DNA of 64,000 bases from a virus (taxonomy: Duplodnaviria; Heunggongvirae; Uroviricota; Caudoviricetes). Where the stretch lies: positions 211,298 to 275,297 of the IMG/VR virus record IMGVR_UViG_3300033463_000001; one strand, 5' to 3'. A model generated the notes under the pieces. It ran no database searches, was not told where the DNA came from, and saw only the letters and a list, made by a program, of their open reading frames with translations. Position numbers and translations under genes: made by a program. Position 1 is the first letter of the stretch, and each line of letters opens with the position of its first letter. Shown here piece after piece: positions 9,879-26,619 of this stretch.

Positions 9879-9892
9879 TTATGTTGTGAAAG

Positions 9893-9901
9893 TATTTATT
9901 G
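9893..9901 (+). promoter_or_regulatory. TATTTATTG motif 13 nt upstream of ATG (recurring, 5 copies)
   Basis: Exact 9-mer shared with 14456, 32838, 33409 and 52065, always 13-19 nt upstream of a + strand structural gene start; consensus (G/A)TATTTATTGnTAG. Confidence 0.4.
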
Positions 9902-9914
9902 ATAAACGTTAGAA

Positions 9915-10631
9915 ATGGATACAATAGCGGATACACTACGTGGAACGATTTTGTCACTCAAGCAAATTAGTGATAGGCTGAAAAAGCTCGCTAATGCGCT
10001 TGGTGATATGCCATCTGGTACCACAATATACACATCAATCGAAGAGATAAATAATACAGTTTATGAAAGTGCCGCCTCTATTATCGAGTACCTTCAAGGC
10101 GAAGATAGTGGCGCTACAAACACTGCCATTTTGGAGGCTATTGGTGCAATTGAATTTGATAAGTCGGGATTAGCTACAGATATTCAAGCCAATGAAATAA
10201 TTAGCGACGTCAGTGGCCTACCAAGTGAATTACACACAGTATTGGAAACCGTGTCCGGTATAACTGGTTATGCCATACAGGGTAGTGGTACTCCTGAAGA
10301 TGTGAACCTCACTGTTGTAGATGACAAAATAGGAGACATTGCAGAAATTGTAAGTGCGATTACTGGTGGTGAGATTGATTGTACAATACCAGGTAACTAC
10401 GCTCTCGAAACAACACTTGTTAATGCTCGCGATTCAATCCTAAATGAAGTTAGTGGCGTAAGTCGCGAAATAGGTACAGACACAGACCAGGTTACAGTGC
10501 ATGAAAAACTAGATTGGCTCGTCGACTCAACGGGGGAATGCACATTTGTAAGAAACAACGATGGAACCGATACATGGACGCTTATTCTAGATAGGAGTGC
10601 GTCGATTAACAATAACACACTAAACGTATAG
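9915..10631 (+). CDS. fibre-like module protein, paralog family (copy 1 of 3)
   Basis: 238 aa. Shares block FDKxGLATDxQANEIIxDVSGLPxEL...VLExVSGITGYAxQGSGxxEDVNLTVVDxKIGD with ORFs 14483..15277 and 17871..18548, each preceding a DGR target gene. Confidence 0.6.
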   Translation: MDTIADTLRGTILSLKQISDRLKKLANALGDMPSGTTIYTSIEEINNTVYESAASIIEYLQGEDSGATNTAILEAIGAIEFDKSGLATDIQANEIISDVSGLPSELHTVLETVSGITGYAIQGSGTPEDVNLTVVDDKIGDIAEIVSAITGGEIDCTIPGNYALETTLVNARDSILNEVSGVSREIGTDTDQVTVHEKLDWLVDSTGECTFVRNNDGTDTWTLILDRSASINNNTLNV

Positions 10632-10639
10632 TCTAAGAT

Positions 10640-11944
10640 ATGGATGTAACAAAAATACAAAAAGGTAATACAACGTACAATATTTCTGTACAAGGTGTTG
10701 CAACACAAGTAGAACGTGCTGAGGCTGCTGCAAATCAAGCTACAGTTGCTGCCGTTGCTGCTCAACAGGCCGTGACATCAACACACGAGCTTGTCGGTGG
10801 TGAATATGTTCCTAGCTTCGACGCTACAGTAACTTATCATGTTGGTAATTTAGTATTCCATCGTAATAACGACGATGGTCATGTGTTCAGGTGTATTGCA
10901 GAGAGAGCTCCAGGGCCTTGGGTTGGTTCAACGGATGCTTCTTTCGTTCAGACATCTTGCTACGGTGAGATAATGGATATGCGTGGCCACGATATAAATA
11001 TTGAGAGTGTAACTGTTAAACTAAAACCGGACATGGTTAAAGAGTCTCTTGGTGGAGCACCTGCGCTTTCTGGTATCACTGTATTCTTAAAAACAGGAGT
11101 CGGTGATGAAGGCTCGACTTATTCCGGAGTAACAGATGAGAATGCAGAATATACTTTCTCAAACATCCCTTGGGGAACTCAGTATACAATTTTCACAGAA
11201 ACTGAAGCCGTATCTGGTTATGCAGACCCACGGCCGAAGTCTGTTCAATCTGCGAACATGTACCACCGAAACGTAACGCTTTTCTATAGGTTGCAAATGA
11301 CGGGATGGTATGTGATTACAAAGAGTAGTGTTGAACACATTGATATCGCAGACTGGGATACATCAAACAACGACCAGGCAGAGTTACTTGGTTATCAAAA
11401 TAGTCAGTTTAGGTTTGCTATTAAGATTAAAGGACGCGCAACTCAACAGGGCGCATGGTCTAATCCAGGAAACGTAGAAATTAATATTCCGAGCTTATAC
11501 TATGCAAGTACTAACTCTGCCACGTTCATGACAGATGCCTACCTTGCAGATGTTGAGTATCCGGCAGGTGGTGAAGTTTATAGCCGTCTCGCTTTCAACA
11601 CAAAGGCGATTCTTGATAATAAAGGTACACAAGGTGTTCAAGCTGCTACGTTCTGCCATAACGCTACAGTAGAAATCGGAGGTGAAACATATCATGGATG
11701 CTTGCCGCTGCTTGCTATGCTCAACCTGTTTACTAATGGTAGTGCGGAGCGTACTGAGTTCTATAACACCATGAACGAATACCTGACGTGGCTTGGTGGT
11801 ACGCCACTGTTTCTTCGCAGTGGCACCTGGTGGTCCAGCGAGCAGTACAATAACGAGCAAGCTTGGTACATCTACCATGGTAGTCTGAGCAACCACAACA
11901 AGACTAACACGAACAACGTTGCGGTGCCGTTTTACGACCTTTAA
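10640..11944 (+). CDS. DGR target protein 1 (putative receptor-binding protein) with C-terminal variable region
   Basis: 434 aa. The last ~42 codons (...TWWSSEQYNNEQAWYIYHGSLSNHNKTNTNNVAVPFYDL) match TR1 except at TR adenines. N-terminus is paralogous to the other two targets. Confidence 0.8.
   Translation: MDVTKIQKGNTTYNISVQGVATQVERAEAAANQATVAAVAAQQAVTSTHELVGGEYVPSFDATVTYHVGNLVFHRNNDDGHVFRCIAERAPGPWVGSTDASFVQTSCYGEIMDMRGHDINIESVTVKLKPDMVKESLGGAPALSGITVFLKTGVGDEGSTYSGVTDENAEYTFSNIPWGTQYTIFTETEAVSGYADPRPKSVQSANMYHRNVTLFYRLQMTGWYVITKSSVEHIDIADWDTSNNDQAELLGYQNSQFRFAIKIKGRATQQGAWSNPGNVEINIPSLYYASTNSATFMTDAYLADVEYPAGGEVYSRLAFNTKAILDNKGTQGVQAATFCHNATVEIGGETYHGCLPLLAMLNLFTNGSAERTEFYNTMNEYLTWLGGTPLFLRSGTWWSSEQYNNEQAWYIYHGSLSNHNKTNTNNVAVPFYDL
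11818..11943 (+). repeat. DGR variable region VR1
   Basis: ~126 nt nearly identical to 12513-12638. There are 6 mismatches, all A in the TR copy (A->C,G,T,C,G,C in VR), plus one G/C at the extreme 3' end. Confidence 0.85.
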
Positions 11945-11979
11945 TTTTTAGTTTAAAGCTGCTTGCAAGGCATATTGTA

Positions 11980-12450
11980 ATGCCGCCGCACAGCTATACA
12001 AAGAAATACAAAAAAAGACAATTCATAAAAACATCACACGCAGTGGCGCGGATAACTAAAGTTCAGATTTTTAACTCCGTTCTTGGCCTATTAAAGTACC
12101 TAGAACGTACAAAAGACCAGTTTCCGAAAGGCGCAGGACGCGAATATAAGGAACGGATATCACATATCGTGCTATACGAGCTGATTCCGTTTTTGAAAGA
12201 CGCGTACGAAAGCAAAGGAGACCAGAAACGGAGGTTGGATGCCCTGAAGTCGTTTAAGAACAGTTTGGATATTCTGAGCTATGTTTTGAAACTATGTTCG
12301 GATTTCCACTGGATTTCAGTTACACACATGGCGAAAATATCTCTTATGATAGATGATATTGAAACACAATGTAATAGCTGGATTAAACGAACGAAGGCAT
12401 CCGGGTCAGAGTCCGAAGACTTACTGGTCGACGGAGAGTGCCCTAAATAA
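11980..12450 (+). CDS. avd: accessory variability determinant-like small basic helical protein
   Basis: 156 aa ORF between target and TR/RT, the canonical Avd position. Basic and helix-rich, with an FPKGAGREYKERI segment resembling four-helix-bundle Avd family proteins. Confidence 0.55.
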   Translation: MPPHSYTKKYKKRQFIKTSHAVARITKVQIFNSVLGLLKYLERTKDQFPKGAGREYKERISHIVLYELIPFLKDAYESKGDQKRRLDALKSFKNSLDILSYVLKLCSDFHWISVTHMAKISLMIDDIETQCNSWIKRTKASGSESEDLLVDGECPK

Positions 12451-12512
12451 AGGTGGCAACATACTCACCCCCAGCAATGGAAGAGTTATATCGATAATTG
12501 TTGCAAAAACGA
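12451..12512 (+). other. conserved TR leader element (copy 1)
   Basis: AGGTGGCAACATACTCACCCCCAGCAATGG...AGTTATATCGATA immediately 5' of TR1. Homologous leaders precede TR3 (16988-17059) and TR2 (20588-20651). Confidence 0.5.
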
Positions 12513-12638
12513 CAGTGGCAACTGGTGGTCCAGCGAGCAGTACAATAACGAACAAGCTTGGTACATCAACAATGGTAGTCTGAACAACAACAACAAGACT
12601 AACACGAACAACGTTGCGGTGCCGTTTTACGAGCTTTA
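12513..12638 (+). repeat. DGR template region TR1
   Basis: Non-coding copy of VR1, rich in AAC (Asn) codons in the VR frame. It ends 3 nt before the RT start codon. Confidence 0.85.
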
Positions 12639-12641
12639 TTC

Positions 12642-13877
12642 ATGGAAAATAACGTAGTGGATATTGAAGAACTTTGGCTGGCAGAACAAGACTGTGCCAA
12701 GAGAAAAAGGAGTAGCACTGCGTGTGATGAATTTATGATAAACGAAGCCGCCAATGTGGCTAAGCTTTGGAAGGAACTAAACGACGGAACGTATGAGATA
12801 GGTTATAGCACAGCGTTTGTTGTAACAAGGCCTAAATTGCGAGAGGTGTTTGCGGCTGATTTTAGGGATAGGATTGCGCACCACTATATAATCAATAGGA
12901 CAATAAACCTGTTTGAAGCCCACTTTATTGAAGACAGCTACAATTGTCGTAAAGGAAAGGGCACGACATACGCAATTAAACGCATAGACGAACAGATACG
13001 CCAGATTTCCAATAACTTCACAACTGATTGTTGGATTCTGAAGTGTGATATCAAGAATTTTTTTATGAGCATCAACAAGAATATCCTTTGGAGAATGCTC
13101 GAAAAGTTCTTGATTGAAAACTACCAAGGAGACGATAAAGCATTTGTAATTAGCCTGACAAAGCAGATTGTAATGCATCGTCCGGAATTGAAATGTATCA
13201 GGCACGGTACGAATGACTTATGGGATGCGCTTGACACAGGGAAAAGTCTGTTTAACAGTCTACCGTACAAAGGTCTTGCAATAGGCAACCTGACCAGTCA
13301 GATATTTGCAAACTTCTACCTCTCGTATTTCGATAAGTGGATAATCAGCAAACCAGGACTTGGGTACGGAAGATATGTGGACGACTTCATCGTATTAGCA
13401 AAGACAAAAGAGGAGTTGTTATCTCTAATACACGAAATTAGAGCATACCTCAAGGATAATCTTGAACTCCAACTACACCCGAAGAAGTTCTACCTGCAGC
13501 ACTACACGAAGGGTGTGAAGTTCACAGGGTACGTCTGGAAGATGAATCGCATCTACACAAGCAACCGGACTGTAAACAATGCTATTATGATGGTTAGAGA
13601 ATGGAACATGCATCCAGGATTGCCTGGTATAGAGCGATACATACAGAGATATAACTCATTTATGGGTTTCTTGCTATACACGTGTTCGTATAATATACGC
13701 AAGCGAATATGGGAGATGCTTGATGCAAAAATAAAGGAATTGATATATATTGATAAAGATTACAAAGCCGTCCATATCAAGGACAGATTCAACCGAATAA
13801 ACCTAAGAGCAAATGCAATACGGAATCATAAACATAGAAAGCGAAAACTTCGCTCAGTCAAAAAAAATAGCCGATAA
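12642..13877 (+). CDS. DGR-type reverse transcriptase 1
   Basis: 411 aa; RT motifs including IGNLTSQIFANFYL (DGR-specific I/LGxxxSQ instead of QGxxxSP) and YGRYVDDFIV (YxDD catalytic box). Confidence 0.9.
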   Translation: MENNVVDIEELWLAEQDCAKRKRSSTACDEFMINEAANVAKLWKELNDGTYEIGYSTAFVVTRPKLREVFAADFRDRIAHHYIINRTINLFEAHFIEDSYNCRKGKGTTYAIKRIDEQIRQISNNFTTDCWILKCDIKNFFMSINKNILWRMLEKFLIENYQGDDKAFVISLTKQIVMHRPELKCIRHGTNDLWDALDTGKSLFNSLPYKGLAIGNLTSQIFANFYLSYFDKWIISKPGLGYGRYVDDFIVLAKTKEELLSLIHEIRAYLKDNLELQLHPKKFYLQHYTKGVKFTGYVWKMNRIYTSNRTVNNAIMMVREWNMHPGLPGIERYIQRYNSFMGFLLYTCSYNIRKRIWEMLDAKIKELIYIDKDYKAVHIKDRFNRINLRANAIRNHKHRKRKLRSVKKNSR

Positions 13878-14376
13878 CCTATATTTTATCCGCGTAAAAT
13901 TAGGCGAAGACGGTAGTGGTTTTACACAAGCAATTGAGGCCGTCGTAACGCACGAACCAACAGAAGAAGATTTTGCCGGCTTACTGAATAGCTATACCGA
14001 TGGTGTTAAGCGTCATAAGATTGACGACGTGGATACATACGATAAGTCAGATAATGTGAACGGTTTCATTATAAATGGCGAGCATGCTTGGTTTGATAAG
14101 ACGACGCGCATGGGAATTATCAATTTGTTAGAATGTCAACAAAAGACCGGTGAGACATTCACAACTATAGACATCAACGATAAGCTATATGAACTAACAA
14201 TCAGTAGAGGGCTTGAGATGATGCAACAATTGGAGGTGTACGCCGGACAGTGTTTCTTGCGCACGGCGATACACAAGAAGAATATACAAGCACTTGATTC
14301 CGTTAGTGACATTGTAGCATATGACATAACGGATGGCTATCCGGAGCAACTGGAGTTCACACTGGCAGCACTCTAA
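13813..14376 (+). CDS. DGR-module-associated ~187 aa protein, paralog family (copy 1 of 3)
   Basis: Shares NxFxINGxxAWxDKxTRxGxxNLL...LEVYAGQC...TxGYPExLEF with 17302..17868 and 21941..22501, each located at the 3' end of a module. Overlaps the RT 3' end by 65 nt in another frame. Confidence 0.55.
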   Translation: MQYGIINIESENFAQSKKIADNLYFIRVKLGEDGSGFTQAIEAVVTHEPTEEDFAGLLNSYTDGVKRHKIDDVDTYDKSDNVNGFIINGEHAWFDKTTRMGIINLLECQQKTGETFTTIDINDKLYELTISRGLEMMQQLEVYAGQCFLRTAIHKKNIQALDSVSDIVAYDITDGYPEQLEFTLAAL

Positions 14377-14390
14377 CTGACTGGATTTGG

Positions 14391-14424
14391 GCGAGAACAC
14401 GATGCGTTGTTCTCGCTTTCTTTG
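14391..14424. terminator. Rho-independent terminator
   Basis: GCGAGAACA-cgatgcg-TGTTCTCGC hairpin followed by TTTCTTTG. Confidence 0.6.
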
Positions 14425-14455
14425 TCTATGTCCGTGGACAAACGCAGCAATTTGA

Positions 14456-14464
14456 TATTTATTG
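14456..14464 (+). promoter_or_regulatory. TATTTATTG motif (copy 2)
   Basis: GATATTTATTGTTAG, 19 nt upstream of ATG 14483. Confidence 0.4.
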
Positions 14465-14482
14465 TTAGATGTAGATACAATT

Positions 14483-15277
14483 ATGACAATAACAGAGTTA
14501 TTTAGAAAAGCAATCATGAGTCTCTCCGGGATTTCTCAAGTCCTCAAAGAGCTCTATAACTGGTCACACGAGAGTGTTGCCACAAAGGAGTCTGTTCAAC
14601 AGGAGCTTACCAACAAGGCCACCAAGCAGAATGTGACGGATGCACAATCCGCTATTATTGGTGCAATCAACAGCAAACCTGTTACACCGGCTACTGACCT
14701 AACACCGGTTACACAGGTCTTGGGTAGCTATAACTCCAGCAAAGGTACTATTCAAGACCAAATCGGCAATATTGTATTCGATAAGAATGGACTCGCTACT
14801 GATGCGCAGGCTAATGAAATTATCGGAGATGTCAGTGGGCTACCTGGTGAGTTGAATGCCGTTTTGGAAAGTGTTTCTGGTATTACCGGATATGCTTACC
14901 AAGGAAGTGGGTCTTCAGAGGATGTTAATCTCACAGTAGTAGACAATAAGATTGGTGACGTACAGGAGGTAATCGACACAATTAACGGCGGAACGATGGA
15001 TATTAATATTCCATCGGATTACGTTCGCGACACAACGGTTACAAGTGCCAAAACTGAGATTCTTAGCGCTATTACTGCTGTTAGTGGCTCGGTTGGTGTT
15101 GACAATAGCGGCGTGACTGTACACGAAAAAGTTGATACAATAGAAGCAATGGTGCGATACCTGTTCAATGGGTGTAGCATTGTAGAGAATAGTGACGATG
15201 TCGGAACAGGAAATCAAGGATATACAGTAATACTTGACCAGACAGCATCGATTAACGACGGAATACTTACATTATAA
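14483..15277 (+). CDS. fibre-like module protein, paralog family (copy 2 of 3)
   Basis: ORF track begins at TTG 14462; first ATG is 14483 (MTITELFRK). Strong identity to 9915..10631 over FDKNGLATDAQANEIIGDVSGLPGEL...VHEKVD. Confidence 0.6.
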   Translation: MTITELFRKAIMSLSGISQVLKELYNWSHESVATKESVQQELTNKATKQNVTDAQSAIIGAINSKPVTPATDLTPVTQVLGSYNSSKGTIQDQIGNIVFDKNGLATDAQANEIIGDVSGLPGELNAVLESVSGITGYAYQGSGSSEDVNLTVVDNKIGDVQEVIDTINGGTMDINIPSDYVRDTTVTSAKTEILSAITAVSGSVGVDNSGVTVHEKVDTIEAMVRYLFNGCSIVENSDDVGTGNQGYTVILDQTASINDGILTL

Positions 15278-15278
15278 C

Positions 15279-16841
15279 ATGAGCGCGAATAAAATTACAA
15301 AATTTCAGAAGGGTAACGTTATATACGACCTGTTTGCTCCCGGATTGGATGAAGCAGTAGCAAGTGCTGCTACCGCACAGAATAACGCCGAGTATGCTGC
15401 CAACACGGCTTCGTACGCTGCGGCTATGACATACCATATGCTTGGACTTGAGAATGTTCCTTTGTGGAACCAGTCCGATGCCTATGCAAAGAATGACATT
15501 GTTCGTAAGACGGTTGTTTCTGGGGGCGTGTCCAGTGACCATATCTTCCGTGCCAACAACGAAATTGCTGCAGGAACGGCGTGGAATGATGACCTATGGA
15601 CGGATACATCTGTGTGGGGTGAGATTCAAAACATGAAGGTTGGTGCTTTGTCTGTTGAGACGGTGCGTGTTACAGGATATATGTTCCAGGATGGCTCACT
15701 TATACCGGTTCCGGAAGGAGAGGCATTGAATGTTGTCTATAACGAGACCAACCACTTTTATTCCTTTAAGGCAGGCCTATGTGAGTTCTCAGTACCGCGT
15801 GGTACGGAATATGGCATCATTTATAGCCCGATTAATGGTTACAATACTCCGTCTGCTGCCTACTATAACGCTAATATGTCAACGCGTAGTATCACAGCTA
15901 CATATCACTATCGTCAAAGTGGTTGGTTTGGTGTTAAGACTGTAACTACAACGGTTAACAACACATCAAGTGTAAGCATCGAAGAAGTTCCAATGTCAGA
16001 GTGGAACCAGGCTGATAATGATGCATCAATAGGTATTAAGTTCTACGGACCTCTTGGTCACTACTTCCTGCCGAAAAACTGGAAAGACTATAGAACAACA
16101 GGTGTTCAATTCTCTTCTCTAAATATTGAGTTCTCTACCACTACTGCGGCAAACATGGAAGCATTGGTTATTGACCGGTATTTCCGCATTGGAACAGAGC
16201 TAACCTATCAAAAGAGTGGTGGTGTTGCAACGTGCATCATTACAAAGGCACAGGCAGACACTTGGTATCAAGGCAACGACGTTACCGATACCGACGGTGA
16301 CTTAATTGTCAGCGGACTTTCTTCTGAGGATAAAACAGCGTATCAAGCAGTTATCACGGCTCGTTATGACTATGGATTGAGTCCTGCGGTTGGTGGACAT
16401 ACGTTAAGTTCTAACAATGCAACACTGACGAATGACTGGGATGCCTTTGATGCAACGCAACAACTTGTTGAGATGTGGCAGGCATTTGCCAGCTTTAACC
16501 TTCAATCATTAACTGCGTGCGCTGCAGTGTGGGCACGTGGTAAATCGCTAACCATTGGAGAGTCAACGTATTACGGAAACTTACCTACTGCCGGTATGGT
16601 TCTCAGCCTTAGTGGAAACAGAAGCCAAATTCAACAGCATCTCAAGACAATCGGCGTCGACGCAGCCTATGCTGAAGCGTTTACCATCGGTACGGCGTCG
16701 TGGGGTTCCGGCAGCGCCGGTAACACCTGGTCGTCCTCACAGTTTAATGCTAGCATCGCGTGGTGCTTGAATACGTCTGGGGCGTTGCTCAGCCACAACA
16801 AGAGCTACAGTTACTCGGCGGTGGCCGTGTTCGACCTATAA
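15279..16841 (+). CDS. DGR target protein 3 with C-terminal variable region
   Basis: ATG at 15279 (MSANKITKFQKGN), directly after the upstream stop; N-terminus paralogous to 10640 (MDVTKIQKGN). The last ~43 codons match the orphan TR3 except at TR adenines. Confidence 0.8.
   Translation: MSANKITKFQKGNVIYDLFAPGLDEAVASAATAQNNAEYAANTASYAAAMTYHMLGLENVPLWNQSDAYAKNDIVRKTVVSGGVSSDHIFRANNEIAAGTAWNDDLWTDTSVWGEIQNMKVGALSVETVRVTGYMFQDGSLIPVPEGEALNVVYNETNHFYSFKAGLCEFSVPRGTEYGIIYSPINGYNTPSAAYYNANMSTRSITATYHYRQSGWFGVKTVTTTVNNTSSVSIEEVPMSEWNQADNDASIGIKFYGPLGHYFLPKNWKDYRTTGVQFSSLNIEFSTTTAANMEALVIDRYFRIGTELTYQKSGGVATCIITKAQADTWYQGNDVTDTDGDLIVSGLSSEDKTAYQAVITARYDYGLSPAVGGHTLSSNNATLTNDWDAFDATQQLVEMWQAFASFNLQSLTACAAVWARGKSLTIGESTYYGNLPTAGMVLSLSGNRSQIQQHLKTIGVDAAYAEAFTIGTASWGSGSAGNTWSSSQFNASIAWCLNTSGALLSHNKSYSYSAVAVFDL
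16709..16838 (+). repeat. DGR variable region VR3
   Basis: 130 nt versus 17060-17189 at a constant offset of 351 nt. About 20 mismatches, all at TR adenines, plus one terminal G/C. Confidence 0.85.
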
Positions 16842-16987
16842 ATTTAGGTTCGCAAGTTACAGCATTGGGTCATTGCAGACACAATGCGCTATATAATACA
16901 TAAGTGAACATTGACATATACAGCAAGAGGTTAAATTCTCGACGCAATGTAAGCCAGCATGCTGATACTTACGGGTTAGGCAGCGCG

Positions 16988-17059
16988 CATTAATCATAGG
17001 TGGCCTACCACTTTCCCCCTGCTTGCAGGATAAGTTATATCGATAGAGTAGGCGTATAA
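16988..17059 (+). other. conserved TR leader element (copy for orphan TR3)
   Basis: AGGTGGCCTACCACTTTCCCCCTGCTTGCAGG...AGTTATATCGATAGAG, homologous to the leader 5' of TR1. Confidence 0.5.
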
Positions 17060-17189
17060 CGGCAACGCCGGTAACACCTGGTCGTCCTCACAGTATAATG
17101 CTAACAACGCGTGGTACTTGAATACGTCTGGGGCGTTGAACAACAACAACAAGAACAACAGTTACTCGGCGGTGGCCGTGTTCGAGCTA
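17060..17189 (+). repeat. DGR template region TR3 (orphan: no adjacent avd or RT)
   Basis: Intergenic, AAC-rich (aacaacaacaacaagaacaac) copy of VR3. Confidence 0.8.
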
Positions 17190-17192
17190 GGA

Positions 17193-17204
17193 ATGAAATG
17201 CTAA
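17193..17204 (+). pseudogene. vestigial RT start (ATG AAA TGC TAA) at the position where RT genes begin after TR1 and TR2
   Basis: In modules 1 and 3 an RT ATG lies 3-5 nt after the TR end. Here an ATG at the same offset is followed by a stop after 3 codons. Confidence 0.4.
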
Positions 17205-17301
17205 TAGCAGATTTAATTACATTGGCGTGCCGGAGACGGCTCGTTTAGGAAGGTCGAGAATACCTCTTTGCTGTATTTATTGTAAGACAAAAACATGTTA
17301 T

Positions 17302-17868
17302 ATGGAATATATAATTGAGAGATATGCGTCGGACGATTTCCGTACGTCAGAAAAGATTGGAAATAGGTACATCATACGCACAAAAATTGAAGACTTGCCG
17401 GAAAGTGAGTCTGTTCGCTGCGTCGAAAGTATCATTGACCATAGTCCGGCACAAGCAGATTATGATGCACAGGTAGCAAGCTACATAGGAGATGTGCAAC
17501 AGGAGAAACTGTCATGCATACGGCGCTATGATGTGTCGGATAACGTCAATATCTTCTACATTGATGAGCACGCAACATGGCTTGACAAAGATACTCGCGT
17601 CGGTCTGGACAACCTCATTAAGAAACAAAAGGAGGCCGGTGCTACAGAAACGACCTTGTGGTTAGCTGGTGTCAGCTTTGTTATCGAGATTGACCATGCA
17701 ATAGACCTTCTCAGACAACTTGAGATTTACGCAGGTCAATGCTACAACAAGACAGAGGAACATAAGGCAGCAGTTCTTGCAACTACAACAATAGCTGGCG
17801 TTGAGAACTACGACTACACAACAGGTTATCCGGAGCCACTGCACTTTACGATTAGTAATAATGAATAA
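17302..17868 (+). CDS. DGR-module-associated ~188 aa protein, paralog (copy 2 of 3)
   Basis: ORF track starts at 17227. Paralog alignment and ATG 17302 (MEYIIERYASDDF) give 188 aa. Conserved NIFYIDEHATWLDKDTRVGLDNL...LEIYAGQCYN...TTGYPEPLHF. Confidence 0.55.
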   Translation: MEYIIERYASDDFRTSEKIGNRYIIRTKIEDLPESESVRCVESIIDHSPAQADYDAQVASYIGDVQQEKLSCIRRYDVSDNVNIFYIDEHATWLDKDTRVGLDNLIKKQKEAGATETTLWLAGVSFVIEIDHAIDLLRQLEIYAGQCYNKTEEHKAAVLATTTIAGVENYDYTTGYPEPLHFTISNNE

Positions 17869-17870
17869 CC

Positions 17871-18548
17871 ATGCCAGAGTCTATTAGCCAATTGTTTAAC
17901 AAGACCATACTCAGTCTAACAGGGATATCTACATTCCTGAGTAATATCTACGCCTGGCTTACAAGCAACGTTGCTACGAAGAGTGACGTTTCTACAGCCA
18001 CGCAGAATGGTGCTACAAAGACAGACCTTAGCACATCAACCAATACCATTGTAACTGCTATCACGAATAAGCCAGTGACACAGATTGGACCTATAATGGA
18101 TGTGCTGGGTGACTTCAATGCAGGTAATGGTACAATACAAGACCAGATTGCAGACCTTGGAACTGCTGTTGGGCAGATTGAGTTTGATAAGACCGGGTTG
18201 GCAACAGAGAGTGGAACAACGAGCGCCGTTACGGCAGCGGCCGGGAGTGTTATCAATGCGCTACCAAAAGACTACGCACAGAGAGGGGAGAATAGTGGTG
18301 CAACTAATAGTGCAATTCTAAACGCTTTGAGCGATGATAGTGGAAATACTGTTGTTGATATTCTTACCGACGAAACAAGTGGCCTATCAGCCATAAGTAA
18401 TGCAGTTTCAGGACTGCCTGAAGTAATGAAAAATATGTATGCGGCACACTTTGAACAAAACGAAGATGGTGAGGATACGTATACAATGGTAATGCCGTTA
18501 ACAGCCATAGTTAGTGAAACCGGCGAAGCAATCACAATAAACATTTAA
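17871..18548 (+). CDS. fibre-like module protein, paralog family (copy 3 of 3, diverged)
   Basis: 225 aa; retains the IQDQI...FDKTGLATE block and the same position in the module. Confidence 0.5.
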   Translation: MPESISQLFNKTILSLTGISTFLSNIYAWLTSNVATKSDVSTATQNGATKTDLSTSTNTIVTAITNKPVTQIGPIMDVLGDFNAGNGTIQDQIADLGTAVGQIEFDKTGLATESGTTSAVTAAAGSVINALPKDYAQRGENSGATNSAILNALSDDSGNTVVDILTDETSGLSAISNAVSGLPEVMKNMYAAHFEQNEDGEDTYTMVMPLTAIVSETGEAITINI

Positions 18549-18556
18549 TACAATAT

Positions 18557-20128
18557 ATGTCAACACCTACAAAAATAGCTACTAGATTAAAATCAGCAAT
18601 AACCGGTGAAGAGTTCTTTATTGGAACTGTTGGTACTCAAGAAAAGGTTTCTGTATTATTGTCTGCACCTTCCAGTGTGGATTGGACACAATATTCCGTA
18701 GTAGTACAAAATATATCACAAACTGGTTCCCAGACTCTCAATTTAACATCTGAGGCATCTGGTGCAACAACCGTCGGTGTATGTGCTTTCAATATGCCAA
18801 TGGGCGTTATATACGAAGTGCAATTACCGACAATTACGGGATACGTATCTCCAATTAACCAGCGATTCTCAGCAACATCAGCAATGAGACAACTTATTCA
18901 TGAATACACAGCTGAAGGTGAGAAATTCGAACAAGTAACAATACTTGCATCCTTTGCATCTGCAGGAGGTACTGTTGCGTTATTGGAAAATATGACTGTT
19001 ACAGCGCTGTGCACCGATGGAACATCTTATTCAGGTATGTTTAATGCTAGTGGAATGTGTACTATTACCAATATCCCATATGGTAAAACATACACAATTC
19101 AATACCCGGATGTAATTAGTAGTGACGGGTCTATTCCATTTCATCATGACCGCAATAATGAACAGTTTACCGCCGGAGAACCATCAAGGATGCTTAATGT
19201 TACCTATTATGAGGGTATCATTGGTATTCATGGTGTTGACAGGTACGGAAACCTATTAAGTCTAGAAGAAATTGAATCTGGCATCACAAACGGAACGATA
19301 GTTGCTTCCGACATTATAGCAGGATATTACAATGATTCAAGGCTATCTCAGTCAACACGTGGTGATGGTTCAGGTATAGGTAATGCTGTTGTATGGAGTG
19401 TGTGGGATAATAAAATGCAAGGTTCCTGGATGAACCCGAATGGAAGCACTGTTAATGGCGTACCATTGAATAGCTCAGAAGGATATCACCTTGATAAATC
19501 GCGCTGTGCTGGAAAATATTATACGTTGCTAATCTCAGACTACGCAACAAGTAATAGCTATGCTTCAATCATTAAAGACTGTACCGCGCGAACTATAAGA
19601 GCACAAAAACTTTATGCTGTATATAACGATATTGTATATCGCCAAGTAGAATATAGTGACAATCAATGGAAATCTGTAACAGAGACCCCTGTTATTGTTT
19701 ATACTCATGATTCTATTACAAACCTTAACGGTGTAACAGGCGTGACTTTCTATAGCACTGCGCAAGGCGCAACTGATGAAGATAGTAGCGATATCGCATT
19801 TACTGCTGATGTTTTGAACTCTGCCGCAACAAAGAATGGTTTTACGGGTTCATACGCACAGATGAAAGGAATGGCAGACAACTGGGCTAATAACACAACC
19901 AATCCAGGTGCTTATACGGCGTACAGACTCTACAAAGCTTTAGGCATTGAGACTAAGATTACATCTGCTTCCAGCAACGCGACGTCTCACAACATCCGTA
20001 ACGGCTACTGGTGGACGTCTTGTCAGGCCAGTTCGACTTATGGAGTCTTACTGCTTAGTGGCTCCTTCGACATCGGCAACAAGTACTACGGTAGCTCTGT
20101 GTTGGTTTTGTTCGACCCTTTTGAATAA
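18557..20128 (+). CDS. DGR target protein 2 with C-terminal variable region
   Basis: 523 aa. C-terminus ...GYWWTSCQASSTYGVLLLSGSFDIGNKYYGSSVLVLFDPFE corresponds to TR2 (GNWWTSCQNSSTNGVKLNSGSFNNNNKNNSNSVLVLFEP). Confidence 0.8.
   Translation: MSTPTKIATRLKSAITGEEFFIGTVGTQEKVSVLLSAPSSVDWTQYSVVVQNISQTGSQTLNLTSEASGATTVGVCAFNMPMGVIYEVQLPTITGYVSPINQRFSATSAMRQLIHEYTAEGEKFEQVTILASFASAGGTVALLENMTVTALCTDGTSYSGMFNASGMCTITNIPYGKTYTIQYPDVISSDGSIPFHHDRNNEQFTAGEPSRMLNVTYYEGIIGIHGVDRYGNLLSLEEIESGITNGTIVASDIIAGYYNDSRLSQSTRGDGSGIGNAVVWSVWDNKMQGSWMNPNGSTVNGVPLNSSEGYHLDKSRCAGKYYTLLISDYATSNSYASIIKDCTARTIRAQKLYAVYNDIVYRQVEYSDNQWKSVTETPVIVYTHDSITNLNGVTGVTFYSTAQGATDEDSSDIAFTADVLNSAATKNGFTGSYAQMKGMADNWANNTTNPGAYTAYRLYKALGIETKITSASSNATSHNIRNGYWWTSCQASSTYGVLLLSGSFDIGNKYYGSSVLVLFDPFE
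20003..20119 (+). repeat. DGR variable region VR2
   Basis: 117 nt versus 20652-20768. About 20 mismatches, all at TR adenines, plus a terminal G/C. Confidence 0.85.
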
Positions 20129-20169
20129 TTAAAAGCGCTAGGACATTCCTGTCCAGCGCATAAACAGCA

Positions 20170-20583
20170 ATGGGAAAAATTGTAGATAAATACACAGACG
20201 GTAGGGAGATACCTCTATATAAAGCAACGGAAACATTGCTTTATGACGTTGATAATTTGATTAATTTTTTACAGAAAGATAGGAAGCATACTCTTGGACA
20301 ACACATGCTTCTCCTTGTTTTGGATATGCTGGATTGCGTGGCGGTAGCATACGATTTTCCAGAAAGAAAAGTTGAACAATTAAAGTTGTATATTTCGAAG
20401 TATAACAACTTGGCAACAATTCTTAAAATGTGTGAAATAAAGGGTTATCTAATGAACAATAATAAGAACTATTATGTTGAGATGATTAAACCTTTAGGAA
20501 ACGCATATAAACAAGCTAAAGGTTGGTTAGTATCCGCAAACAAAGAAGCCGGAGTCTGTATGGATAATACAGAGAGCGCGTAA
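20170..20583 (+). CDS. avd: accessory variability determinant-like protein
   Basis: 137 aa helical ORF between target 2 and TR2. The segment KDRKHTLGQHMLLLVLDML resembles the PRKHG region of known Avd proteins. Confidence 0.55.
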   Translation: MGKIVDKYTDGREIPLYKATETLLYDVDNLINFLQKDRKHTLGQHMLLLVLDMLDCVAVAYDFPERKVEQLKLYISKYNNLATILKMCEIKGYLMNNNKNYYVEMIKPLGNAYKQAKGWLVSANKEAGVCMDNTESA

Positions 20584-20587
20584 AATT

Positions 20588-20651
20588 TAGGGTGGCTATC
20601 TACTTTCTCCAGAAATGGGAAGTTAAGAATAAGATAATGATAGCGACATAC
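20588..20651 (+). other. conserved TR leader element (copy 3)
   Basis: AGGGTGGCTATCTACTTTCTCCAGAAATGGGAAGTTAAGAATAAGATAATGATAG; same architecture as the TR1 and TR3 leaders. Confidence 0.45.
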
Positions 20652-20768
20652 GGCAACTGGTGGACGTCTTGTCAGAACAGTTCGACTAATGGAGTCAAAC
20701 TGAATAGTGGCTCCTTCAACAACAACAACAAGAACAACAGTAACTCTGTGTTGGTTTTGTTCGAGCCT
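20652..20768 (+). repeat. DGR template region TR2
   Basis: AAC-rich copy of VR2 ending 4 nt before the RT2 ATG. The ORF-track 'protein' 20592..20780 is just its translation. Confidence 0.85.
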
Positions 20769-20772
20769 AAAT

Positions 20773-21996
20773 ATGAGTGAGTGGTGTACAATAGAAGAAG
20801 TATATGCTGCCTATCTTGACTGTAAAAAGCACAAAACAAGGTCTAGTTCATACGCAGAATTTGCTGCTAACGAAGCAATAAATTTGTATGAATTATGGCT
20901 TGATTTGAATAATCATACCTATAAAATTGGTTTAAGTGACGCATTTTGTGTTACACGGCCAAAAGTTAGGGAAGTATTCGCTGCTAGGTTTCGCGACCGT
21001 ATAGTTCACCATTTGGTGATTATGCGATTGTTGCCTATATTTGAACAACATTTTATTGAAGATACGTATAATTGCCGAAAAGGGAAGGGTACGGATTACG
21101 GAATTAATCGTGTATTGAATTTTACTAAAAACCACCCAAATGGTTGGATATTAAAGTATGATATAAGTTGTTTTTTCATGAGTATTAACAAAACTTTGTT
21201 AAACTCAATGCTGAAAACATTTATTTGCGATAATTATAGTAGGGATGACAAAGACGAGATTTTATCTTTGGTAGAAATGATTGTCATGCATCGCCCTGAA
21301 TTGCTTTGTATAAGGAAAGGTGATTTAAGCTTATGGAATCAATTACAAAAAGGAAAATCTTTATTTCGCAGCGACGGAAATCACGGCCTTGCAATTGGCA
21401 ACCTTACAAGCCAGATATTTGCGAATTTCTACATGTCGCAAATAGATAAATGGCTAGCAAGTATTGATGGTGTAGAATATGGAAGGTATGTTGATGATGC
21501 AATTTTAGTATCTGACGATAAAAATTTATTACTATCTATACTCCCCAAACTGCGTGAGCGATTAAGCGTTGAGCTTGATTTAGAACTACATAAAAAGAAA
21601 ATATACATACAACCAGTCAGGCATGGCGTTTCGTTTTTAGGGAGCGTAATTAAGAATGGGCGTTTATATGCAGGAAATCATACAGTTACAAATGCATTTA
21701 ATATAACGAAAGAGTTTGCGTGTAGGTTAGATAAGGAGAGTTGCGTTGAAAAATTTGCACAGCGATACAATTCTTATATGGGATATCTAATACATCGTAA
21801 AACATACGCAATCCGATGGAATCTATGGAATAATGTAGATGAAGAAACAAAAAAGTTTGTATACTTAACAAAACGCATGGGTTTAATGCGTGTAAGGGAT
21901 GTGTACAAAGAGAAAACTAAGCTAAAAAGTCAATATAAACATGATAAAAGAAACATTAGCAATAAACGACTGGGAGGAGTTGTCAAAGGCTTTTAA
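20773..21996 (+). CDS. DGR-type reverse transcriptase 2
   Basis: Start moved to ATG 20773 (MSEWCTIEEV), downstream of TR2. Motifs IGNLTSQIFANFYM and YGRYVDDAILV. About 50% identical to RT1 by eye. Confidence 0.9.
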   Translation: MSEWCTIEEVYAAYLDCKKHKTRSSSYAEFAANEAINLYELWLDLNNHTYKIGLSDAFCVTRPKVREVFAARFRDRIVHHLVIMRLLPIFEQHFIEDTYNCRKGKGTDYGINRVLNFTKNHPNGWILKYDISCFFMSINKTLLNSMLKTFICDNYSRDDKDEILSLVEMIVMHRPELLCIRKGDLSLWNQLQKGKSLFRSDGNHGLAIGNLTSQIFANFYMSQIDKWLASIDGVEYGRYVDDAILVSDDKNLLLSILPKLRERLSVELDLELHKKKIYIQPVRHGVSFLGSVIKNGRLYAGNHTVTNAFNITKEFACRLDKESCVEKFAQRYNSYMGYLIHRKTYAIRWNLWNNVDEETKKFVYLTKRMGLMRVRDVYKEKTKLKSQYKHDKRNISNKRLGGVVKGF

Positions 21997-22501
21997 GGTT
22001 GGTAATAAGCAATTCTATTACTTACGCATGTTCAAAAAAGACCTGCCTGGTGATTTGTGTGTTTGCTACACCGAATTAGTTGACCACCAACCAACACAAG
22101 AAGAAAAGGATGAGTTGTATGCAGCTTATCTTGCCGGAATGAAAAATATGGTAATAGACGAGATTGTCGCATATGATTCTTCTAGTGCCGTAAACAAATT
22201 CTATATCAACGGTATTGAAGCGTGGCTGGATAAACAGACTCGTGTTGGATTAGTGAACCTTCTGGAATCGCAAAAGAAAACAGAACACACTCGCACAACA
22301 CTTTGGTTTAATGGAACACCAATCGAGTTAGATATTGAAACAGCGCTCAATATGTTGTATGAGCTTGAGGTATACGCTGGCTTATGTTATAACCAAACGG
22401 AATTACATAAAGCCAATGTGTTAGCTTTAGTAAATATTGATGACGTCGAAAACTATGGCTACACAACAGGATATCCTGAATACCTCGAATTTGAGGTGTG
22501 A
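21941..22501 (+). CDS. DGR-module-associated ~186 aa protein, paralog (copy 3 of 3)
   Basis: KFYINGIEAWLDKQTRVGLVNLL...LEVYAGLCYN...TTGYPEYLEF. Confidence 0.55.
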   Translation: MIKETLAINDWEELSKAFKVGNKQFYYLRMFKKDLPGDLCVCYTELVDHQPTQEEKDELYAAYLAGMKNMVIDEIVAYDSSSAVNKFYINGIEAWLDKQTRVGLVNLLESQKKTEHTRTTLWFNGTPIELDIETALNMLYELEVYAGLCYNQTELHKANVLALVNIDDVENYGYTTGYPEYLEFEV

Positions 22502-22583
22502 GTATTATAGAAACGGCCTTGTTATTAAATTCATAGGCGGAACGCTAGTAGCAGAATGGAATCGAAATGATTCGGAATAATAA

Positions 22584-22618
22584 AAACCGGTACCTCAATC
22601 GAGATGCCGGTTTTCTTG
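22584..22618. terminator. bidirectional Rho-independent terminator between convergent genes
   Basis: AACCGGTA-cctcaatcgaga-TGCCGGTT hairpin, A-run on the 5' side and TTTTCTTGTTG on the 3' side. Confidence 0.6.
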
Positions 22619-22621: not shown

Positions 22622-23008
22622 TTAGTACACAACCTCTTCGCAGTTGTATCCCTGTTTCCTAATCCAGTCAGCAACGAGATGCCTATGACAGAAGTCGCCT
22701 GGTTTCTCGTAGCACAAGAGCGTTAATTCATCAAGCGCTACGCCATCGGAACCGTAGAATTCATTCAAATCGAACAGGACGTTGAGTATATCCAATTTCG
22801 ATAACACCTCATTGTTAAACCTGCGTGTATACAGTTCCGTGTCTCCTTTTTCAACTCCACCATTTTTGTAAGCATTCAAGATGCTATATGTCGGTGCTAG
22901 CTTCTTATATTCAGGTTTTCCTAGTGCTGTGTACCACACAGGTGCTTTCGCTGCGATAGAGACGGGATATTTGATTTGTTTTAACTTTGCAAAATAACTG
23001 GTTTTCAT
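22622..23008 (-). CDS. DUF488-family protein
   Basis: 128 aa with the conserved ...EKPGDFCHRHLVADWI... block typical of DUF488. Last gene of the NAD operon. Confidence 0.5.
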   Translation of the reverse strand: MKTSYFAKLKQIKYPVSIAAKAPVWYTALGKPEYKKLAPTYSILNAYKNGGVEKGDTELYTRRFNNEVLSKLDILNVLFDLNEFYGSDGVALDELTLLCYEKPGDFCHRHLVADWIRKQGYNCEEVVY

Positions 23009-23754
23009 AGTCCATAGAGTTTATGTTCATGCATGTACCTGAGCGACTCCTTGTAGTTTGGCAACCACTGTTGTAAATTTTTCTTATTTACATCAAACTG
23101 TATGCTTGCGTTAGGAATGCTTCCGATACATCTCCTCAGTTCTGTTGACGATATCTCCTGGATGTTGATATTCTCAGCGTAGATGCAGTTGTCATTCAGC
23201 AAGCGCCTATCAACCTCGTATCCTTTGCGTGGGATGATGATTATCTTAACAATGCCGGAGTTCAATAACCAGTTGTAGTCCTTGAACTTTTCTATACTAT
23301 TAAAGCTATCAACACCCATCACAAAGTAATACTGGTTCTCATTGAAGACGTTCTCACAGACGATGCGCTTCAATGTATCAACAGTATATGCACATTGCGC
23401 GGTGCCGAAGTGAACAATCTCGTAAGGACTTATAACAATTTTATCCTTGAACCAGTCACGAATGAACTGAGGGTACTCCGGATTTAATGTCATTTGTTTT
23501 AGTGCAATGTCACACAACTTGCACCGGTGGTATGCATCAACAGTTTCTGAGTTACCTGTCTTGAACGGACTACACGGAGAAGGGAGGACATAAACCTTTT
23601 GCACAAGGACAGGATTCTCACGTTGCCCATCCCCAAGCAATGCCATTACCGTCTGTACGTGCCCAGCATGGATAGGATTGAATGAACCACCGTATATGGC
23701 GATTTTCGTACACCTATCCACACCTGGATGCATTAAGCCGTCAACTTCCAACAT
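23005..23754 (-). CDS. nadD: nicotinate/nicotinamide-mononucleotide adenylyltransferase
   Basis: GGSFNPIHAGH (HxGH nucleotidyltransferase motif), ...SPYEI..., FVMGVDSF and ISSTELR blocks match the NadD pattern. Confidence 0.8.
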   Translation of the reverse strand: MLEVDGLMHPGVDRCTKIAIYGGSFNPIHAGHVQTVMALLGDGQRENPVLVQKVYVLPSPCSPFKTGNSETVDAYHRCKLCDIALKQMTLNPEYPQFIRDWFKDKIVISPYEIVHFGTAQCAYTVDTLKRIVCENVFNENQYYFVMGVDSFNSIEKFKDYNWLLNSGIVKIIIIPRKGYEVDRRLLNDNCIYAENINIQEISSTELRRCIGSIPNASIQFDVNKKNLQQWLPNYKESLRYMHEHKLYGL

Positions 23755-23756
23755 AG

Positions 23757-24287
23757 TTAGTCAATATGTAGTTGGCGTGCCATGAACGGAACATGTTTGT
23801 AGAACATCTCCGGAATCAACTCTTCGTGGCCGAAAGCCCAGTCGTATGAATCTCTATCACCGAACGGAACCCATTTAATGCCTGCAATCTCGTCCACCTC
23901 AGAGTTCGTGTCGTTGAAGGTGAAATCACTTGTTACCTTATCGTTGATAACGGTTACATAACGCAGTGTGACATTCTGGTCTTTCTTCTTACTGAAGGAT
24001 ATCGAGTCAAATACCATCTGTTCTGGCTTCAACCCAACGCCTGTCTCCTCGAAGATTTCGCGAACAACTGCCTCGTTGCCATTCTCATCGAAGTCCAGGA
24101 ATCCGCACGGTGCGTTCCACTTGAAGTTCTCATCGGGACAACCGGCACCACGCTGATTAGCAAGCACGCACCATGTACCATCTTTGTCACGACAGAAAAC
24201 GAATCCTACAACTGCTACTGAACGACTACGCCAGTATGTCTGCCCGTCCACTTCGAACGGGAAATTTTTCATTATTCTCTCACCCAT
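23757..24287 (-). CDS. Nudix hydrolase (candidate ADP-ribose/NAD(H) pyrophosphatase)
   Basis: Perfect Nudix box GFLDFDENGNEAVVREIFEETGV (Gx5Ex7REUxEExGU). Confidence 0.8.
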   Translation of the reverse strand: MGERIMKNFPFEVDGQTYWRSRSVAVVGFVFCRDKDGTWCVLANQRGAGCPDENFKWNAPCGFLDFDENGNEAVVREIFEETGVGLKPEQMVFDSISFSKKKDQNVTLRYVTVINDKVTSDFTFNDTNSEVDEIAGIKWVPFGDRDSYDWAFGHEELIPEMFYKHVPFMARQLHID

Positions 24288-24288
24288 A

Positions 24289-25446: not shown

Positions 25447-25711
25447 GTAAATAAAGTTGTTTAAAGTTTTCGTTATATTCTGCAATCTCCTTTTCGAGAC
25501 GTGCAATGCGTTCATCGCTGTATCCGGATATATCGTATACCTGACGGTCACCAATCACTTCGTCAACTGGCATGTAGAGCACTTTAACGGTATCATCAAA
25601 CTCAGAAGATATATGCTTGATGACATGTTCTACAAACTCAGGAACGTCGCCACGGTTAACGCCACCGATGTAAATCTGGATAACGATAATGCGTTTTTCT
25701 TTATCAGTCAT
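25427..25711 (-). CDS. hypothetical protein (94 aa)
   Basis: Compact ORF coupled to neighbours inside the operon; acidic C-terminus; no motif recognised. Confidence 0.45.
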   Translation of the reverse strand: MTDKEKRIIVIQIYIGGVNRGDVPEFVEHVIKHISSEFDDTVKVLYMPVDEVIGDRQVYDISGYSDERIARLEKEIAEYNENFKQLYLHDSKPS

Positions 25712-26540: not shown

Positions 26541-26566
26541 AGTTGTAATAGTTTTTCAAATTCGCC

Positions 26567-26617
26567 CACAAAGATATGTAAAATTTTTGATATATACAAA
26601 TCCTGTGGACGAATTTT
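26567..26617 (-). promoter_or_regulatory. Bacteroidota-type promoter (TTTG-N20-TATCTTTG) within a 50 nt conserved repeat, copy 1 of 3
   Basis: Minus-strand read: AAAATTCGTCCACAGGATTTG-tatatatcaaaaattttaca-TATCTTTG, 22 nt before the Thg1 start. Near-identical copies at 44485-44535 and 51899-51949. Confidence 0.6.
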
Positions 26618-26619
26618 CA

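Follow-up and report, generated by a model that had tools for sequence, protein, structure and literature searches.

A probable stand-alone template cassette of a diversity-generating retroelement, without avd or reverse transcriptase of its own, in the tail-fibre locus of a huge phage

In the diversity-generating retroelement (DGR) of Bordetella, RNA upstream and downstream of the template repeat (TR) binds the complex of reverse transcriptase (RT) and Avd, bRT-Avd, and positions priming (10.1101/2023.10.23.563531). avd, TR and RT function when supplied in trans, from a plasmid, and the action of one TR in trans on remote variable repeats (VRs) is established (both PMC5758913). A survey found that about a fifth of the DGRs with multiple VRs hold more than one TR (PMC6642488), and incomplete loci of Thiohalocapsa are diversified via the TR of another locus or via coexisting intact variants (PMC10907252). 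Here we describe a DGR module that has its own target gene, VR, leader and TR and neither avd nor RT. It lies in a stretch of 64,000 nucleotides (nt) from a virus of the Caudoviricetes (IMG/VR record IMGVR_UViG_3300033463_000001, positions 211,298 to 275,297), which we refer to as the window. The JGI contig that holds the window is 327,393 nt long, and the virus is therefore a huge phage.

Between 9.9 and 22.5 kb the plus strand of the window carries three tandem paralogous tail-fibre modules, the one of interest, module 3, standing in the middle (Table 1). Every module has a VR at the 3' end of its target gene and a TR. Modules 1 and 2 contain the arrangement avd-TR-RT; in module 3 the place of avd and RT is taken by a 460-nt non-coding cassette (16842-17301) that holds TR3 and is followed by a gene of 188 amino acids (aa). 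RT1 and RT2 are 48% identical, both have YVDD and the DGR signature IGNLTSQ, and RT1 matches RVT_1; Avd1 and Avd2 match the Avd profiles PHROG 3206 (avd1, E=2e-10) and bAvd. Both RT/Avd pairs are intact and lie 3-4 kb to either side of module 3. The 264-aa gene of module 3 is 43-44% identical to its paralogues (blastp), target 3 is 28% identical to target 1, and the 188-aa gene is truly paralogous to those located after RT1 and RT2, which bears out the proposal that the downstream gene of ~187 aa has been retained. The structural genes of the window are nearly without Pfam or PHROG matches. Target 3 matches neither database; a C-type lectin or immunoglobulin fold found no Pfam match in it even at E<=10, and an AlphaFold model of its C-terminal 190 aa was discarded (pLDDT, the model's confidence score, 39).

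The composition of module 3 described in the original prediction can be read directly from the sequence. In tblastn searches of 16842-17301 with RT1, RT2, Avd1 and Avd2 nothing was found at E<=1, and all reading frames of this segment are riddled with stops. Having no RT or Avd of its own, module 3 is therefore part of a DGR system and not a complete DGR. The RT-less layout is reproduced, wholly or in part, in the assemblies of four other samples (ENA, JGI and two from Logan), and the architecture is real rather than an assembly artefact. We consider it quite probable that module 3 is a stand-alone DGR template cassette of ~460 nt, made up of spacer, structured leader, TR3 and a 112-nt 3' flank, without its own avd or RT.

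TR3 lies 351 nt downstream of VR3, to which it is 91% identical over 130 nt. Eleven of the 12 mismatches fall at adenines of TR3, and the twelfth is a G in TR3 (17186) opposite a C in VR3 (16835). All three TR/VR pairs have this asymmetry, CGAC in the VR and CGAG in the TR, preceded by an invariant GC-rich stretch, and the GC-rich 3' end of VR3 is unchanged in all strains; by the paradigm of phage BPP-1, the G/C difference would be a directional marker resembling the initiation of mutagenic homing sequence (IMH) and its counterpart IMH*. VR3 matches TR1 and TR2 at only 57-60% identity, and we therefore take TR3 to be its template. The VR ends 3 nt before the stop codon of target 3. VR3 had been described as being as diverged from its TR as VR2 is; its divergence from TR3 is evident, but the equality does not hold, with 11 adenine mismatches in the VR3/TR3 pair against 16 in VR2/TR2 and 6 in VR1/TR1. 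Could TR3 instead be a decayed duplicate of VR3? This reading has the absence of an adjacent RT in its favour and nothing further. TR3 has A at every variable position, mostly within AAC codons, while the base in the VR varies by strain, and TR3 has kept its structured leader and, at the IMH-like position, the TR-specific G, just as TR1 and TR2 have. The direction and the adenine specificity of the differences refute a duplicate origin, to which we assign next to no probability.

Population data carry the case for diversification of VR3 further than the divergence of TR and VR could. We aligned positions 7302-27868 of the window to L001 (ENA ERZ27257207, a 327,291-nt contig) and examined two more distant strains, L004 (Logan, 96.9% identical) and L085 (JGI 3300041717, Ga0451997_0706502, ~97% identical). 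The window and L001 differ by 25 mismatches in 20,567 nt, 14 of them in VR3 and 11 in VR1, with none in VR2 or elsewhere. At each of these 25 sites the cognate TR has an adenine, and TR3 is identical in the two genomes. The original prediction had raised the case of a VR3 that is invariant while VR1 and VR2 vary; between these otherwise identical genomes it is VR3 and VR1 that vary and VR2 that does not. L004 and L085 likewise lack RT and avd in module 3, and the four strains carry four different VR3 sequences, again varying at adenine positions. The VR3 of L085 contains a 12-nt insertion, TAC TAC GGC GTC, each codon of which can be reached from AAC by adenine substitution, and the TR3 of L004 has an extra AAC, so that the AAC run is length-polymorphic.

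Since strains diverged by ~3% share the RT-less module, the absence of the RT predates their divergence. It is thus older than the VR3 changes, which separate otherwise identical genomes, and an RT must therefore act in trans. That VR3 was mutagenised after module 3 lost its RT, or without its ever having had one, by an RT in trans is strongly supported, in agreement with what had been presumed from the divergence of the repeats.

In this region the TRs and the lengths of the repeats also differ between strains. TR3 has one substitution and the extra AAC in L004 and five substitutions in L085, all of them at adenines or in the AAC run. The substitutions between strains in TR3 (17073, 17076, 17104, 17107, 17124) and TR2 (20655, 20689) are at adenines in seven of seven cases (chance ~2e-4), and the TR2 of L085 has an extra CAA. 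Either a template tolerates drift at its adenines only, or the TR itself is at times converted by mutagenised cDNA. Insertions of 3 or 12 nt in the VR relative to the TR lie within the AAC run in VR1 of L004 and L085 (after 11888) and in VR3 of L085 (after 16794), which suggests slippage during reverse transcription or the use of a TR length variant as template.

A different account of the same data would have the cassette dead, the VR3 differences being standing variation from before the loss of the RT that was reshuffled by recombination or by assembly consensus. L085 gives it some substance: its whole DGR system is visibly decaying, so such modules do die, and its VR3 is inconsistent with its own TR3 at three of the five mutated template positions. 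However, the 14 changed VR3 sites, every one a TR adenine, stand against 20.3 kb of non-VR sequence without a single difference between the window and L001. For recombination to produce this pattern, it would need to bring in two patches of ~100 nt each that are limited to VR1 and VR3, and the RT-less state, common to strains 3% apart, is older than the changes to be explained. Since the sequences flanking TR3 are moreover more constrained than neighbouring coding sequence, as detailed below, we regard a dead cassette as very unlikely.

Outside the VRs the background divergence between the window and L004 is 2.98%. The 330 nt flanking TR3 (spacer, leader and 3' flank) have a single substitution relative to L004 where 9.8 are expected (P=6e-4), and three relative to L085 where 8.0 are expected (P=0.04). 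Leader and 3' flank together are unchanged relative to L004 (0/187, P=0.004), the leader contributing 0/75 and the post-TR3 flank 0/112, the latter count holding for both diverged strains; the spacer has 1/143 and 2/143 substitutions relative to strains whose divergence elsewhere is 2.4-3%. The complete cassettes show comparable conservation (0/188 for leader 1 with TR1). Codon differences to L004 in the nearby genes are mostly synonymous, with synonymous to nonsynonymous counts of 19:1 in the 264-aa gene, 17:5 in the non-VR part of target 3 and 15:3 in the 188-aa gene, while the TR3 flanks are nearly unchanged. These non-coding flanks are therefore more constrained than the surrounding synonymous sites, and the TR3 cassette flanks are under purifying selection.

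The leader of TR3 consists of a GGUGG box, an outer stem ACUU...AAGU, an inner stem CCUG/CAGG with a CUUG tetraloop and, following these, a AGUUAUAUCGAUA box. It had been noticed from the sequence alone that this leader shares a stretch with that of TR1; the two indeed have AGTTATATCGATA in common, and their similarity is far beyond chance (z=7.8, 0/1000 shuffles), as against z=6.9 for leaders 1 and 2 and z=2.9 for leaders 3 and 2. The alignment extends ~17 nt into the 3' end and stop codon of avd. We aligned with MAFFT the leaders of eight cassettes, namely modules 1-3 and the related DGRs L091, L087, L094, L093 and L095. The outer stem takes the form ACUN/N'AGU, its fourth pair occurring in all four Watson-Crick forms, and the inner stem is 3-5 bp long and differs in sequence from cassette to cassette. 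Seven of the eight loops are tetraloops (GCAA, CUUG, GAAA, GAAA, GUAA, GAAA and GCAA), the loop of L095 being larger. All cells of the stem-loop alignment are paired (100%), with 4-5 compensatory pairs, a result matched by none of 500 shuffles, and slid controls reach 26-56% pairing. Compensatory changes are seen across 8-10 cassettes, TR3 included.

The corresponding covariance model, R1, matches the 64-kb window only upstream of TR1, TR3 and TR2, and it also recovers three loci on which it was not trained (L119, L139 and L145), where the match precedes the RT by the expected distance. From the R1 match and the covarying stem-loop it follows that TR3 retains the structured leader typical of complete cassettes. 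Rfam has no family in the window and none for the leader stem-loop, and an exact scan of IMG/VR with the leader pattern gave 0 matches. In the alignment of leader and 3' flank proposed for all three units, the leaders are homologous, and the flank after TR3 has no significant similarity to, or fold in common with, the regions after TR1 and TR2.

Which RT/Avd pair serves TR3? We lean towards RT1/Avd1 as the probable donor, in preference to RT2/Avd2, to both or to an RT outside the window. In the comparison of the window with L001 it was VR1 and VR3 that changed together, with VR2 unchanged. The leader box AGTTATATCG (AGUUAUAUCG in RNA) is a derived state confined to modules 1 and 3 and to L091, which encodes an RT with 60% identity to RT1; the box AGTTAAG (AGUUAAG) is found in RT2-type cassettes (module 2, L087 and L094) and in the outgroups L093 and L095. 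The boxes AGUUAUAUCG and AGUUAAGAAU may be candidate determinants of RT specificity. The preference for RT1 voiced in the original prediction is strengthened by the AGTTATATCG box and by the joint change of VR1 and VR3, though the donor assignment is still unproven. The A-to-N substitution spectra of VR1, VR2 and VR3 are too similar, and the substitutions too few, to assign an RT, and a search with RT1 for homologues that might reveal a third RT on the same contig was uninformative, the family having more than 4,600 members at E<=1e-40.

Service of TR3 by RT2/Avd2, or by either complex interchangeably, is a less likely arrangement, though one with some points to commend it. The 3' half of TR3 (59 nt), the part that would be reverse-transcribed first, has 81% identity to TR2, the 188-aa gene is nearer to its counterpart in module 2 (44%) than to that in module 1 (36%), the stem-loop core is common to all three leaders, and RT2 is intact in both the window and L001. 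However, VR2 stayed static while VR3 gained its 14 changes, the 3' box of the module 3 leader has the RT1-type derived form rather than the AGTTAAG of RT2-type cassettes, and leader 3 resembles leader 2 far more weakly than it resembles leader 1. A source outside the window, whether elsewhere in the genome, in the host, in a co-infecting element or in a coexisting full-length allele of module 3, strikes us as improbable. The window covers 64 of the ~327 kb of the genome, and long reads from Thiohalocapsa PB-PSB1 revealed structural variants with an intact RT at two 'incomplete' DGR loci (PMC10907252). Against this, two intact and linked RT/Avd pairs with homologous leaders flank module 3, none of the contigs retrieved from five samples (that of the window included) has an RT in the interval from target 3 to the 188-aa gene, and R1 found no further leader in the window.

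The region just after TR3 was originally read as holding a vestigial RT start, ATG AAA TGC TAA, left behind by deletion of the RT body. This mini-open reading frame (mini-ORF) is present, begins 3 nt past the end of the TR/VR homology and is kept in all four strains; RT1 starts 3 nt after TR1 (12642) and RT2 4 nt after TR2 (20773). An RT remnant, in contrast, is not detectable in the 112 nt after TR3: local DNA alignment with RT coding sequence gave z~0, and an RT N-terminal profile hidden Markov model gave E=0.15 in a search space of one sequence. We rejected the remnant as undemonstrable. As an alternative, ATGAAATGC within the mini-ORF might form one strand of an RNA duplex that closes the TR. 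In the minimum free energy (MFE) fold the mini-ORF pairs with 16987-16997 (GCAUU/AAUGC and UCAU/AUGA). In modules 1 and 2 the last bases of avd, just 5' of the GGUGG box, are perfectly complementary over 7 bp to the junction of TR end and RT start, AAUAAAG/CUUUAUU (12446-12452 with 12634-12640) and AUUUAGG/CCUAAAU (20594-20600 with 20766-20772). The two duplexes differ by three compensatory pairs, and a family-wide pairing-score test gives Fisher p=0.005. They recall the cPRT Stop duplex in the RNA of the Bordetella DGR and are candidates for a duplex that closes the TR; support from the pairing-score test is modest and at family level only, and an RNAduplex energy test of the closing duplex was not significant.

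The post-TR3 flank also holds a hairpin, GGCGUGCCG-GAGA-CGGCUCGUU, with a GNRA tetraloop and a 9-position stem with one U-U mismatch. It lies 35 nt after TR3, appears in both the MFE and the centroid fold, and has no alignable counterpart in modules 1 and 2. It resembles the tetraloop-capped, Avd-binding stem-loops of ~9 bp that Handa et al. place just downstream of TRs (10.1101/2023.10.23.563531) and is put forward as a candidate only. RNAalifold on the three 3' flanks (-3.8 kcal/mol) and folds of whole cassette RNAs (z between -1.2 and +0.7) were not informative.

Taken as a stand-alone template cassette, module 3 would work as follows. TR3 would be transcribed, probably within a long plus-strand tail-fibre transcript, and an RT/Avd complex encoded elsewhere in the same phage would recognise its RNA via the flanking elements, among which we infer the leader stem-loop and the post-TR hairpin to be sites of protein recognition. 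The complex would copy TR3 with adenine-specific errors, and the cDNA would replace VR3, guided by the invariant GC-rich 3' end. A more far-reaching and tentative version, which we think possible though not the likelier outcome, would see TR3 and its flanks as a selectively maintained, free-standing 'template RNA gene' of ~250-460 nt by which a third receptor-binding protein is hypermutated. RT1/Avd1 would then be shared by two templates, module 2 would be separate and largely orthogonal, and the pairing would be set by the leader stem-loop and the 3' box (AGUUAUAUCG versus AGUUAAG).

Several points weigh against these readings, in addition to the resemblance to module 2 and the limited part of the genome examined. 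It may be that the window and L001 were both assembled from one sample; the VR differences would then represent heterogeneity within a population, which is still DGR activity, and the timing argument would rest on L004 and L085. The argument for RT1 from the joint variation of VR1 and VR3 comes from a single genome pair. The 3' flank could instead owe its conservation to signals for expression of the 188-aa gene. The TR-closing duplex of module 3 that involves ATGAAATGC is not beyond chance (p=0.56), and its post-TR3 flank has no significant similarity to, or structure in common with, the post-TR regions of modules 1 and 2. Finally, that RT1 or RT2 binds and copies TR3 RNA is something we infer from sequence.

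As to origin, module 3 plausibly descends from a complete avd-TR-RT cassette that lost its avd and RT genes: the paralogy of the modules and the ~17 nt of leader sequence resembling an avd 3' end would speak for deletion. The data fit equally well with a leader-TR fragment having been gained by recombination. A stretch of the spacer resembling the start of avd2 is marginal (z=2.6, 15/500 shuffles). An intact ancestral module 3 was not found in any relative recovered. A near-identity DNA search of a phage collection with 9900-22600 gave no match, a search of IMG/VR with target 3 returned nothing, and searches of JGI metagenome contigs, by an exact 25-mer of the post-TR3 flank and by alignment of target 3, likewise returned nothing and no further strains. 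We also examined 80 IMG/VR loci that carry a homologue of the 188-aa gene: a DGR is present in about a dozen, always together with an RT, and none has an RT-less TR. The only distant homologue of target 3 (47% identical) lies at 1924-3390 of a pig gut contig (L003; ERZ940839; P0002); it has a VR-like C-terminus with a longer YY-containing loop, as in L085, and is directly followed by a 183-aa gene. This 9.6-kb contig has no TR, VR repeat or RT and is uninformative on ancestry. The DGR core of module 2 (20001-22000) has a GC content of 36%, versus 41-46% in modules 1 and 3, which suggests a different origin for the module 2 cassette.

Decay of DGR modules is clearly ongoing in this lineage. In L085 a 1,359-nt deletion with junction microhomology (window 12403-13761) removes the 3' end of avd1, leader 1, TR1 and nearly all of RT1. 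A 1,691-nt IS200/IS605 element (Y1 TnpA and TnpB) follows TTAC at 17220/17221, 31 nt downstream of TR3, and RT2 has a 1-nt deletion in an A5 run (20824) that shifts the frame at codon 18 and could be an assembly error. L085 thus looks DGR-dead from its sequence. A related huge phage (L087, ENA ERZ28573731, a 365-kb contig) has at 6850-10038 a module-2-like DGR with a target, an avd product 47% identical to Avd2 and 17 adenine mismatches between TR and VR; its RT2-like gene is split by an IS607-type element (serine recombinase and TnpB), the second case in this group of an insertion sequence (IS) in a DGR cassette.

Table 1. Positions in the window of the three tail-fibre modules and of genes in the region of the NAD-related cluster
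Module	Feature	Position	Strand	Remarks
Module 1	238-aa gene	9915-10631	+	
Module 1	Target 1	10640-11944	+	VR1 11818-11943
Module 1	DGR core	11980-13877	+	avd1 11980-12450; leader 12448-12497; TR1 12513-12638; RT1 12642-13877
Module 1	187-aa gene	13813-14376	+	Overlaps RT1 3' end
Module 3	N-terminal fibre-like gene, 264 aa	14483-15277	+	Paralogue of 9915-10631 and 17871-18548
Module 3	Target 3, 520 aa, probable receptor-binding tail-fibre protein	15279-16841	+	Open reading frame
Module 3	VR3	16709-16838	+	Target 3 3' end
Module 3	Invariant GC-rich VR3 3' end, IMH-like homing end	16810-16838	+	
Module 3	Non-coding spacer, target 3 to TR3 leader	16842-16984	+	Hairpin 16862-16887; possible avd-start remnant 16914-16942
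Module 3	TR3 leader RNA motif	16995-17046	+	Covariance model, covariation
Module 3	TR3	17060-17189	+	AAC-rich, 38 adenines over 17060-17194
Module 3	Post-TR3 non-coding flank, 112 nt	17190-17301	+	Hairpin 17224-17245
Module 3	Mini-ORF ATG AAA TGC TAA	17193-17204	+	Direct read
Module 3	188-aa gene, DUF4376-like, tail-fibre associated	17302-17868	+	Alignment, weak PHROG tail-fibre match
Module 2	225-aa gene	17871-18548	+	
Module 2	Target 2	18557-20128	+	VR2 20001-20119
Module 2	DGR core	20170-21996	+	avd2 20170-20583; leader 20587-20634; TR2 20650-20768; RT2 20773-21996
Module 2	186-aa gene	21941-22501	+	Overlaps RT2 3' end
	DUF488 gene	22622-23008	-	
	CTP_transf-like (NMNAT-type) gene	23005-23754	-	
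	Nudix	23757-24287	-	
	NAPRTase	24289-25554	-	
	Thg1-like gene	25704-26540	-	
	Phosphoribosyltransferase	27413-28309	-	
	NAD synthase	29670-30542	-	

Beyond the tail-fibre modules, the minus strand of the window carries a cluster of NAD-related genes, accompanied by a Thg1-like gene and a DUF488 gene (22622-30542; Table 1), in keeping with published NAD+ synthesis systems of gut jumbo phages (PMC11662467). The same strand encodes a 502-aa phage protein with SPFH/Band-7 and flotillin domains (31244-32752).

DGRs are usually catalogued by their RT, which leaves TR-only cassettes invisible to RT-anchored pipelines, and hypermutated targets may be under-counted. With an active private template that has no enzymes of its own and two candidate donor pairs in one genome, the features that match a template to its RT/Avd become testable, and rules for this matching would help in the design of multiplexed or orthogonal DGR mutagenesis. 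The locus also illustrates how DGR modules decay in huge phages, by deletion, IS insertion and frameshift. Servicing in trans of a dedicated, RT-less TR had been called rarely documented. This is a fair description, although multi-TR DGRs (PMC6642488) and trans or incomplete loci (PMC5758913, PMC10907252) have already been described; the literature we searched contains no phage example of a private RT-less TR cassette with demonstrated activity and constraint.

Module 3 shares with the prototype DGR of BPP-1 (mtd-avd-TR-brt) the adenine-specific flow from TR to VR into the 3' end of a tail-fibre receptor-binding gene and the IMH-like asymmetry of TR and VR, and modules 1 and 2 share with it the pair of Avd and RT. 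Function in BPP-1 depends on the RNA flanking the TR (10.1101/2023.10.23.563531; PMC6182149). Unlike in BPP-1, the TR of module 3 and its flanks stand alone, without avd or RT, and in modules 1 and 2 the RT start follows the TR at a distance of 3-4 nt, which makes the 'spacer' RNA elements overlap RT coding sequence. The leader stem-loop lies upstream of the TR and is not among the elements described for BPP-1; the Avd-binding stem-loop of Handa et al. (10.1101/2023.10.23.563531) is downstream of the TR.

As in the trans DGRs of Treponema denticola, Legionella and others (Wu et al. 2018, PMC5758913), an RT here serves a sequence that is not adjacent to it. In those systems a single TR serves several VRs, whereas module 3 has a dedicated TR, matched to its own VR and 57-60% identical to the other two TRs. 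Thiohalocapsa PB-PSB1 (Dore et al. 2024, PMC10907252) likewise has RT-less loci whose targets are diversified in natural populations; unlike there, the TR of module 3 is private and the RT is absent from all four strains recovered. The multi-TR DGRs (Yan et al. 2019, PMC6642488), such as that of Stenotrophomonas sp. SKA14 with its two TRs, resemble this locus in that TRs outnumber RTs. Those are catalogue entries without evidence of activity for the extra TR, whereas here two complete DGRs stand beside a TR-only cassette for which populations provide evidence of both activity and constraint.

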